DNA of 597 nucleotides, taken from the NCBI RefSeq assembly GCF_003334255.1, contig NZ_QOWU01000216.1; one strand, given 5' to 3'. Under the pieces are notes generated by a model. That model saw nothing but the letters and a program-made list of their open reading frames with translations. It ran no database searches and was not told where the DNA came from. How positions within the stretch are numbered: the first letter of the stretch is position 1; every line of letters begins with the position of its first letter. Source of the stretch: Escherichia coli. GTDB taxonomy: Bacteria; Pseudomonadota; Gammaproteobacteria; Enterobacterales; Enterobacteriaceae. Shown piece after piece: positions 22 to 476 of the stretch. The translations under genes and the position numbers were made by a program.

Positions 22-48
22 GAAAAAACAAAACCCGCCGAAGCGGGT
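22..48 (-). terminator. Rho-independent terminator of the hok mRNA
   Basis: Minus-strand reading is ACCCGC-TTCG-GCGGGT followed directly by TTTTGTTTTTT: a 6-bp GC-rich stem (33-38 pairing 43-48), a UUCG tetraloop and a U-tract. It sits 69 nt downstream of the hok stop. There is no T-run on the plus-strand side, so it looks unidirectional. Confidence 0.85.
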
Positions 49-49
49 T

Positions 50-68
50 AAGTGCGGGTGCGTTGAGG
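50..68 (-). promoter_or_regulatory. 3' fold-back (fbi-like) element of the hok mRNA, complementary to the 5' leader element at 431-448
   Basis: Plus-strand 50-68 AAGTGCGGGTGCGTTGAGG versus the reverse complement of 431-448, GACTGCGGGTGCTTGAGG: an 8-nt plus 6-nt perfect match separated by one extra G, with one further mismatch at the edge. In the mRNA this lets the extreme 5' end pair with the region just upstream of the terminator, as the tac/fbi interaction does in R1 hok mRNA (established knowledge; the assignment here is inference). Confidence 0.5.
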
Positions 69-117: not shown

Positions 118-273
118 TTACTCCTCAGGTTCGTAAGCTGTGAAGACAGCGACCTCCGTCTGGCCGGTTCGGATTCGTACCTCGCAGAGGTCTTTCCTCG
201 TTACCAGTGCCGTCACTATGACGGTTAAACAGATGACGATCAGGGCGATTAACATCGCCTTTTGCTGCTTCAT
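118..273 (-). CDS. hokD: Hok/Gef family type I toxin (small membrane-depolarising peptide), HokD/RelF-like, 51 aa
   Basis: Minus-strand ORF from ATG (complement of 271-273) to TAA (complement of 118-120), 156 nt. Translation: MKQQKAMLIALIVICLTVIVTALVTRKDLCEVRIRTGQTEVAVFTAYEPEE. It has a single hydrophobic transmembrane segment and a conserved Cys-containing TRKDLCEV core, as in Hok/Gef proteins. It matches my memory of E. coli HokD (RelF) and is close to, but distinct from, HokC (Gef). Paralogue naming is from recollection and the context differs from K-12 hokD. An AGGAG Shine-Dalgarno lies 9 nt upstream. Confidence 0.93.
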   Translation of the reverse strand: MKQQKAMLIALIVICLTVIVTALVTRKDLCEVRIRTGQTEVAVFTAYEPEE

Positions 274-329
274 AGCCTGCTTCTCCTTGACCTTTCGGTC
301 CGTAAGAGGCTAATCTCTATGTGTCGCAT
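270..329 (-). CDS. mok-like leader ORF (19 codons), translationally coupled to hok through an ATGA start/stop overlap
   Basis: Minus-strand ATG (complement of 327-329) is preceded by GAGG with an 8-nt spacer. Translation: MRHIEISLLRTERSRRSRL, ending in a TGA (complement of 270-272) that overlaps the hok ATG. It starts 56 nt upstream of hok, at the position where mok starts in hok/sok loci, but in the +1 frame. The frame in phase with hok is closed by a TAG 13 codons upstream of the hok ATG. Whether the peptide is made is untested. Confidence 0.45.
   Translation of the reverse strand: MRHIEISLLRTERSRRSRL
283..287 (-). promoter_or_regulatory. Shine-Dalgarno sequence of hok (AGGAG)
   Basis: Minus-strand AAGGAGAAGCAGGCT-ATG; AGGAG with a 9-nt spacer to the hok ATG. 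Confidence 0.7.
287..316 (+). promoter_or_regulatory. Candidate sigma70 promoter for the Sok-like antisense RNA
   Basis: Plus-strand TTGACC (287-292), 18-bp spacer, TAATCT (311-316); predicted start near 322-324. The -35 overlaps the hok Shine-Dalgarno on the opposite strand. The -10 matches consensus only at T1, A2 and T6, so this rests largely on position. Confidence 0.45.
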
Positions 330-380
330 AGATATGGCCTCAGATTAATGTTAAGCGTCTTGCAGGACGCGTAATGTTAA
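322..380 (+). ncRNA. sok: Sok-like antisense RNA antitoxin (type I), boundaries approximate
   Basis: A plus-strand transcript from about 322 would be exactly antisense to the Shine-Dalgarno and AUG of the mok-like ORF (complement of 327-341). It ends in a stem-loop, GCGTC-TTGCAG-GACGC (355-370), extendable to an imperfect stem over 345-380. Size (about 55-65 nt) and position relative to the mok start fit known Sok RNAs. The 3' end is uncertain (378 to about 392) because no clean U-tract follows the stem. Confidence 0.5.
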
Positions 381-393
381 CTGGGGCTTTTCT

Positions 394-430
394 CTATCTG
401 CCTTTTGGTGTTCATGCCTGAGACAGATAG
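394..430 (-). repeat. Inverted repeat (hairpin) in the hok mRNA 5' leader
   Basis: Plus-strand CTATCTG (394-400) and CAGATAG (424-430) are perfect reverse complements, extendable to about 10 bp with one G-U pair, with a 17-nt loop. It lies immediately 3' of the leader element at 431-448 in the mRNA and may belong to the leader's regulatory fold. Confidence 0.4.
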
Positions 431-448
431 CCTCAAGCACCCGCAGTC
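431..448 (-). promoter_or_regulatory. 5' leader (tac-like) element of the hok mRNA, complementary to the 3' element at 50-68
   Basis: See the feature at 50-68. It sits directly downstream of the predicted -10, that is, at the extreme 5' end of the predicted transcript. Confidence 0.5.
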
Positions 449-476
449 ATTCTACTTAACTAAGATTTCCCCGCAA
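449..476 (-). promoter_or_regulatory. Candidate sigma70 promoter of the hok mRNA
   Basis: Minus-strand TTGCGG (complement of 471-476), 16-bp spacer, TAGAAT (complement of 449-454), with an A-rich stretch upstream. The predicted start near 441-443 gives a leader of about 113 nt to the mok-like AUG and about 169 nt to the hok AUG, similar to R1 hok mRNA. The complementary 5' element begins right at the predicted start. Confidence 0.4.

Follow-up and report, generated by a model that had tools for sequence, protein, structure and literature searches.

Can a short inverted repeat in the leader of a hok-type toxin mRNA fold into a helix with a part in toxin control and, if so, in which state of the mRNA does this helix exist? 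The hok mRNA is the textbook example of a gene controlled through the order in which its RNA folds, and an intact, apparently complete hok machinery sits in a prophage of epidemic Escherichia coli lineages; the K-12 copy lost it. In this study, we analyzed a window of 597 nt (the whole stretch of E. coli DNA presented here), whose minus strand carries a single, complete type I toxin-antitoxin locus of the hok/sok type. A sequence-only reading had flagged an inverted repeat at positions 394-430 as a leader hairpin that may take part in metastable folding and thereby delay translation and Sok binding during transcription, possibly as the upstream complementary box (ucb).

The entire window is 100% identical to hokD-annotated loci on many E. 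coli chromosomes, e.g., that of the ST131 strain EC958, where the locus lies in a lambdoid prophage with DUF968, RusA, and antiterminator genes as neighbors. The hok toxin ORF (118..273, minus strand) encodes 51 amino acids identical to HokD (Hok/Gef domain PF01848, E 1.3e-23; RefSeq annotation HokD), and its NCBIfam Hok subfamily score is 48.5 bits, under the 73-bit cut-off. The Rfam family RF01794 matches over its full length at 442..271 on the minus strand (106.7 bits versus a gathering score of 59; E 2.9e-25). Despite its name, "sok", this family represents the leader strand of hok, its final three model positions being the hok AUG. With the hok ORF and the RF01794 match both on the minus strand, the repeat is located in the hok leader, as the sequence-only reading had claimed. 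Weak Rfam matches to ceN48, CRISPR-DR28, and rsmX were dismissed as chance or as the terminator hairpin.

For numbering of the mRNA, nt 1 was set to window position 442, so that nt n is window position 443 − n; this start agrees with a TAGAAT box (454-449) spaced like the TATAAT of K-12 hokC and with the alignment to the mRNA of plasmid R1. The box, read from the sequence 6 nt upstream of nt 1 (449..454, minus strand), is the probable −10 element of the hok promoter; a promoter scan of the window found no hok promoter and no Sok promoter site. Coordinates of the leader elements were anchored on the R1 numbering of PMC9841398, of which nine positions were verified on the R1 sequence; the R1 leader sequence used has exact matches in thousands of plasmids. 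Thereby, tac was assigned to the mRNA 5′ end (nt 1-12, GGGUGCUUGAGG; 431..442, minus strand; R1 anchor PMC9841398), and ucb, the mok anti-Shine-Dalgarno (anti-SD) element, to nt 54-62 (AAGCCCCAG; 381..389, minus strand), of which nt 54-60 can pair with tac or, alternatively, nt 56-62 with the mok SD. The mok SD itself, GAGG at nt 102-105 (338..341, minus strand), is homologous to R1 G105-G108 (PMC9841398). A dcb candidate, GCCUC at nt 133-137 (306..310, minus strand), was found by fold prediction as the partner of the mok SD in the processed mRNA. The mok leader ORF (270..329, minus strand) has 19 codons (MRHIEISLLRTERSRRSRL) and ends in a UGA that shares bases with the hok AUG (AUGA), which together with its own GAGG SD is a predicted translational-coupling layout. 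In R1, mok is long and overlaps hok, in contrast to the 19-codon mok of the window. Close relatives, among them L005, differ in length by 2 nt, and their mok frame thereby continues past the hok AUG. The intrinsic terminator of the hok mRNA lies at 32..49 (minus strand) and fbi at nt 375-387 (CCUCAACGCACCC; 56..68, minus strand); fbi pairs with tac nt 1-12 in 12 bp with one bulge, so the fold-back lock complementarity is present. At the sequence level, the locus has every testable hallmark of the hok mRNA family, except that the Sok gene is a prediction by homology.

The sequences CTATCTG (394-400) and CAGATAG (424-430) are perfect reverse complements, which bears out the claimed perfect 7-bp inverted repeat. 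The 17-nt loop ascribed to it was miscounted, and no strand had been given for it: the 7-bp arms are 23 nt apart (401-423), and a loop of 17 nt (404-420) fits only a 10-bp version of the stem (394-403 / 421-430) with one G-U pair on the mRNA strand. Read on the plus strand, this eighth pair (401/423) is a C-A mismatch. Reverse complementation leaves the layout of the repeat unchanged, and the same letters therefore make a stem in the mRNA, with the 5′ arm CUAUCUG at nt 13-19 (424..430, minus strand) and the 3′ arm CAGAUAG at nt 43-49 (394..400, minus strand). The interior of the hairpin (401..423, minus strand) is formed by a 3-bp extension (nt 20-22 / 40-42, including the G-U 423/401) and the 17-nt loop (nt 23-39; 420-404). 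In dinucleotide-preserving shuffles of the window, the mean number of perfect 7-bp inverted repeats with a spacer of 3-30 nt was 0.99 (at least one in 53% of the shuffles), and the window itself contains three. Since about one such repeat is found per shuffled window, the repeat alone is no evidence, and the case beyond chance rests on homologues rather than on the window.

For the comparison of homologues, leaders were taken from 35 genome loci found with the Hok protein, from K-12 hokC, hokB, and hokE, and from plasmids with R1-type, pndA, and srnB-like genes. Six plasmid loci (L038, L039, L041, L043, L057, and L058) were unusable since their leaders had been removed by insertion sequences or rearrangements. 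Alignments from nt 1 to ucb were calculated with MAFFT without structural input for 40 and then for 44 distinct leaders, the larger set additionally including hokB, hokE, pndA, and a srnB-like leader. Both arms of the stem were in register in these structure-blind alignments, and the 7-bp helix was paired in 99.3% of the cells with 40 leaders and in 98.4% with 44 leaders. When as a control the 3′ partners were slid by 1-3 columns, only 35-58% of the whole 17-pair structure was paired (40 leaders), and none of 500 shuffles matched the observed values of this structure (44 leaders). Compensatory changes were present among the 44 leaders at two of the seven pairs, i.e., in column 15/63 (AU 25, UA 14, GU 3, GC 1) and in column 17/61 (CG 35, UG 6, UA 2, AU 1). 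Four further pairs vary through wobble intermediates only, and the closing pair 13/65 departs only via three unpaired cells. Independent compensatory events are few, since double changes are limited to two of the seven pairs and the U-A in column 15/63 belongs mostly to one clade (R1-type). The pair counts are conservative, since MAFFT puts the arm of hokE one column out of register; hokE has an additional U-A to C-G change at another stem position. The same helix is found in the K-12 leaders of hokC (CUGUCUG/CAGAUAG), hokB (CUUUCUG/CAGAAAG), and hokE (CUUUCCGG/UCUGGAAAG), and the stem arms of pndA are CUGUAUGCCG and CGGUAUACAG. Length and sequence of the hairpin loop differ among the homologues, and the 3-bp extension is paired in 78%. 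With the alignment as sole input, RNAalifold predicted the helix de novo, nested within the tac/ucb helix, and the consensus of RF01794 contains it as well. The covariation analysis proposed with the original observation, for which a stem neither conserved nor covarying would have spoken against it, thus found a stem that is conserved and covaries in 44 leaders.

The stem is a real, functional, and evolutionarily maintained RNA helix. It is not new, because it is part of the curated Rfam consensus and corresponds to the upper part of the R1 "tac-stem" hairpin; it is an already described stable helix of the hok mRNA, for which the role assigned by the sequence-only reading was partly wrong. The repeat very probably encodes the conserved upper helix of the 5′-terminal tac-stem hairpin of hok-family mRNAs, a stable and not a transient element. 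Thereby, the flagged helix is assigned its correct place in the hok folding pathway.

Comparison with the hok mRNA of R1 (parB locus) is in line with this placement. There, the homologous helix C12-C20 / G56-G64 lies in the tac-stem hairpin between tac and ucb; in the window, the stem (nt 13-22 / 40-49) is flanked by tac (nt 1-12) and ucb (nt 54-62), the latter starting 4-5 nt downstream of the 3′ arm. The pairs of R1 tac G4, C5, and U6 with ucb C72, G71, and A70 were defined genetically, and R1 C74 faces A106 within GAGG, the mok SD (Le Rhun et al. 2022, PMC9841398). The genetically defined tac/ucb positions fall exactly on the alignment columns used for tac and ucb, G4-C72, C5-G71, and U6-A70 being aligned with window nt 5-57, 6-56, and 7-55, so that the nesting is the same. 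In 44 leaders, 98.7% of the seven tac/ucb pairs are kept; in the window, ucb pairs with the SD in six pairs plus a C-A mismatch as in R1. Both mRNAs also have a competing 5′ hairpin, the tac/fbi and ucb/SD partners, and the C-A mismatch opposite the SD. Their stem sequences differ by compensatory changes (CUUUCUGCC/GGCAGAAAG in R1 versus CUAUCUGUCU/AGGCAGAUAG in the window), and the R1 loop is longer and has an extra inner helix. This makes the R1 stem hairpin alone far more stable than the R1 5′ hairpin (predicted −22.6 versus −13.3 kcal/mol), an order also predicted for R1-type plasmid loci; in the window, in prophage loci like it, and in most chromosomal leaders, the predicted order is reversed, with the isolated 5′ hairpin ahead of the isolated stem hairpin in stability. 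In RF01794, the flagged stem corresponds to the central part of a 13-bp helix, whose outermost two pairs (positions 11-12 with 48-49) are not formed in the window (G-G, G-A); the Sok-terminator hairpin of the window has a 16-nt insertion relative to the model.

The competing 5′ hairpin of the window (nt 3-13 / 19-29; 414..440, minus strand) is a candidate metastable hairpin with a predicted energy of −16.9 kcal/mol and covariation among the homologues. It was 93.1% paired over 8 bp and 87.6% over 11 bp, with double changes in column 12/20 (AU 16, GC 16, GU 10) and column 4/28 (UA 20, CG 12). The stem and this hairpin are mutually exclusive because the 5′ arm of the stem coincides with loop and 3′ strand of the 5′ hairpin (nt 13-19 cover the loop and the first 3′-strand base). 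In the literature, the metastable structure is tac paired with the region immediately downstream (PMC9841398), and the nt 3-13 / 19-29 hairpin, as modeled here, matches this published structure. According to the predictions, tac pairs within the 5′ hairpin while the RNA is nascent, with fbi once the mRNA is complete, and with ucb after processing. Energies were predicted for the flagged hairpin alone (−13.0 to −14.1 kcal/mol), for tac/ucb alone (−7.6 kcal/mol), and for the composite hairpin of both (−25.8 kcal/mol), with a direct-path barrier of approximately 10.8 kcal/mol separating the two 5′ states, which may point to a time scale of seconds.

Every structural state described here was predicted thermodynamically, and the balance of open and closed forms depends on the chosen 3′ end. 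In growing transcripts, the 5′ hairpin was the minimum free energy (MFE) structure at 30-55 nt, and the stem had a probability of 0.00 at 50 nt and 1.0 at 62 nt; the composite hairpin prevailed once ucb was present (60-110 nt). Between 110 and 175 nt, the states were near balance or the 5′ hairpin with ucb/SD won, with a stem probability of 0.16-0.48. The MFE structure of nt 1 to ucb had the stem with tac/ucb in all 40 of 40 homologues. The full-length fold of 419 nt contained tac/fbi with the stem (P ~1.0) immediately stacked on this helix, as well as ucb/SD including the R1-like C-A mismatch. RNAs cut to 330-360 nt had tac/ucb (P 0.77-0.86) together with the stem (0.82-0.90), and the SD was paired with GCCUC (dcb); when cut at 372 nt, the window mRNA was mostly closed (stem/open probability 0.24). 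The stem is thus predicted as a constant of both mature forms, and the competing 5′ hairpin would be the transient element. A barrier-gated co-transcriptional simulation was threshold-dependent: the stem and tac/ucb formed anywhere at nt 57-88, in some runs giving the open hairpin including the stem before synthesis of the mok SD, and two runs were trapped in the 5′ hairpin. In all runs, the stem never formed before approximately nt 57 and always together with tac/ucb.

That the flagged hairpin itself is the metastable hairpin delaying translation and Sok binding during transcription is highly improbable on these predictions. Its location in the 5′ leader, the participation of its 5′ arm in an alternative pairing, and its formation in the crude kinetic runs while transcription continues would fit such a role, but the co-transcriptional folding check went against a transient stem, which is absent at 50 nt, nearly always formed in the full-length mRNA, and mostly formed (0.8-0.9) in the processed mRNA except at the 372-nt end. 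Also, the stem alone (−14.1 kcal/mol) would not displace the 5′ hairpin (−16.9 kcal/mol), and the description in PMC9841398 fits nt 3-13 / 19-29 and not the stem. What stands of the proposed role in metastable folding is that the 5′ arm is common to the metastable 5′ hairpin; the stem itself is not that hairpin.

For the stem as stable upper helix of the tac-stem hairpin, the following pathway is proposed. Early in transcription, the 5′ hairpin (nt 3-29) would hold the 5′ arm of the stem and sequester tac, and the stem would be absent. In the finished full-length mRNA, tac would pair with fbi, the stem would adjoin this helix, and ucb would mask the mok SD, resulting in a closed and inactive form. 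Removal of fbi by 3′ processing would then allow pairing of tac and ucb directly below this stem, and the composite hairpin would trap the anti-SD and free the mok ribosome site, giving an open, translatable, and Sok-sensitive mRNA. In this composite hairpin, the stem would provide most of the free energy (~18 of 26 kcal/mol), and without it the processed mRNA would revert to the closed state with 5′ hairpin and ucb/SD. Since tac/ucb without the stem closes a 45-nt loop with only −7.6 kcal/mol, it would be too weak against ucb/SD. The keystone role of the stem and the timing of the switch are inferred from these folding models.

A further-reaching proposal, for and against which we see about equal grounds, is that a switch with three states has the stem as its energetic keystone and that single stem mutations lock the processed mRNA in the closed form. 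Because the 5′ arm of the stem is common to the metastable hairpin, one short segment (nt 13-22) would decide between "tac hidden" and "anti-SD trapped". In silico, the single changes G49U, A46C, G45C, U16G, and C17G shifted the processed mRNA from ~0.8 open to at least 0.94 closed. The double changes C13A+G49U and U16G+A46C fully restored the open form (0.93-0.98), and C17G+G45C did so partially (0.35-0.66). C13A alone failed to close the processed mRNA in silico since it also weakens the competing 5′ hairpin.

This proposal has a new and testable by-product, as it offers an explanation for the unexplained R1 mutant G64T from a recent mutational scan. G64T abolishes toxicity; the processed mRNA is present, the Hok protein is strongly reduced, and the authors offer no mechanism (PMC9841398). 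R1 G64 is the 3′-terminal base of the stem homologue and forms its closing pair C12-G64 (locus L044; homologous to window 430 and 394). In the model, G64U lowered P(tac/ucb) from 0.17 to 0.00 in an RNA of 361 nt and from 0.86 to 0.02 in one of 330 nt, and C12A+G64U restored it; cut at 345 nt, R1 was closed even for the wild type. The mechanistically explained R1 mutants G4A, U6C, and A70U of PMC9841398 lowered tac/ucb likewise. We propose that G64T acts through loss of the stem closing pair, while it might act otherwise; the comparison of mutants with the stem covers G64T, one of nine 5′ UTR positions of "unknown mechanism" in PMC9841398. If the keystone reading is true, it provides a mechanism for G64T, and C12A+G64U would restore killing.

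The suggestion that the repeat corresponds to ucb, i.e., that one hairpin arm is the anti-SD element, could not be upheld and is very improbable. The 3′ arm is only 4-5 nt away from ucb, and for 31 of 42 homologues constrained folding yielded pairing of a freed 3′ arm close to the start codon of mok. However, the genetically defined R1 positions A70, G71, C72, and C74 place ucb at nt 54-62, and in the full-length fold it is this segment, with nt 56-62 as the SD partner, that pairs with GAGG; the stem does not, its arms pairing with each other. The duplex of 3′ arm and start region was no better than shuffles (p 0.14 in the window; p ≤ 0.05 in 5 of 42 homologues), and none of the R1-type, hokB, Pantoea, and srnB leaders among the 42 homologues examined showed such pairing. 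Pairing of a freed 3′ arm with the mok start codon in a nascent closed state was rejected as unsupported, the energies being at the level of shuffles. By the mapped coordinates, the stem is neither ucb nor part of it but the helix that joins tac to ucb. The 3′ arm also belongs to a direct repeat in the window (308-323 and 385-400, 81%). In the mRNA, 3′ arm, spacer, and ucb (CAGAUAGAGAAAAGCC) are thereby similar to dcb together with the preceding 3′ half of the mok-start hairpin (CACAUAGAGAUUAGCC), so that the two partners of the mok SD, ucb and dcb, have similar upstream contexts.

On the opposite strand, the Sok antisense RNA was predicted by alignment to K-12 sokC, sokB, and sokE at approximately 323..397 (plus strand), with a 5′ single-stranded tail, a long hairpin at 336-387, and a UUUUCUCUAU tail; its predicted fold has −31.9 kcal/mol (z −5.1) with a U-tail. 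A possible Sok promoter, TTGACC (287-292) and TAATCT (311-316), was read by eye. The repeat had been placed between the 5′ leader element and the Sok target region, and it does lie between them, but the predicted 3′ end of Sok reaches 4 nt into the 3′ arm, whose last 4 nt are complementary to it; the annotated 3′ ends of K-12 sokC, sokB, and sokE are all located 4 nt inside the 3′ arm of the stem. The complement of ucb (383-393, plus strand) is the base of the predicted Sok terminator stem (336-387, plus strand), and the A-rich spacer between the 3′ arm and ucb encodes the Sok U-tail. Owing to this double use in hok mRNA and Sok, the bases of spacer and ucb are constrained by RNAs on both strands.

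The repeat might be thought to act on the other strand, as a Sok terminator or structure, or in the DNA, as a protein-binding palindrome near the hok promoter; the plus-strand RNA of 383-442 folds too (−22 kcal/mol, z −2.8), and the predicted Sok 3′ end overlaps the left arm by the mentioned 4 nt. Nevertheless, we consider this highly unlikely. In the 44 leaders, the 22 cells with G-U in the mRNA sense are A-C mismatches on the plus strand, and the reverse occurs in only 3 cells; pairing amounts to 98.4% in the mRNA sense versus 92.2% in the opposite sense. Wobble-type asymmetry of this kind would not be tolerated in a palindrome that acts as DNA. The extension pair 401/423 points in the same direction, being C-A on the plus strand. 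Furthermore, the annotated Sok RNAs stop before most of the repeat, no U-tract follows the plus-strand hairpin, and Sok has its own hairpin and U-tail at 336-397. A chance inverted repeat without function, for which the expectation of about one 7-bp repeat per shuffled window would speak, can practically be discounted, as the repeat is kept with compensatory changes in 44 leaders (Escherichia, Kluyvera, Citrobacter, Photorhabdus, Pantoea, and several plasmid families), belongs to the curated Rfam consensus, and is already refuted as chance by the covariation.

The conserved helix of the tac-stem hairpin is missing where hok genes have no leader. K-12 hokD (relF) has lost its entire leader, stem included, and the window looks like an intact form of the hokD locus. 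In the loci L004 and L033, the Hok protein is identical to that of the window, and the whole leader is replaced upstream of AGGAGAAGCAGGCTATG, which leaves these copies with neither tac, stem, and ucb nor mok and sok. L057 carries a more distant leaderless Hok-family ORF, which is ~40% identical to PndA and adjoins relBE. Transposase genes of IS150 or ISKpn8 are located within ~100-140 nt upstream of hok in L038, L043, and L058; in L039 and L041, an integrase or ISKpn28 gene lies ~70 nt upstream of hok and the leader is absent. Leader loss in K-12 hokA is likewise associated with IS150. With leaders lost beside insertion sequences or integrases, many plasmid and chromosomal hok genes are without the 5′ regulatory RNA domain. 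Photorhabdus genomes have many hok copies, and L016 (Photorhabdus thracensis) contains three tandem hok leaders at 29, 656, and 1288, i.e., ~630 nt apart.

Other mRNAs likewise governed by metastable 5′ structures are Helicobacter pylori aapA3/IsoA3 and the leader of the MS2 maturation gene. Their shared logic comprises transient 5′ hairpins, a long-distance 5′-3′ lock, and activation by 3′ processing (PMC6733600). They have no sequence relationship to the window, and their transient hairpins directly cover the SD; the 5′ hairpin of the window would instead work indirectly by withholding tac and the 5′ arm of the stem.

Two further observations concern the 3′ part of the mRNA. [quoted passage not shown] The hok 3′ UTR (109-28, minus strand) gave a sub-threshold match to isrK, a Salmonella prophage sRNA family (27.2 bits versus a gathering score of 50; E 0.0007). 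This match spans the post-stop hairpin and the terminator and could be due to chance or to a prophage 3′ UTR module in common.
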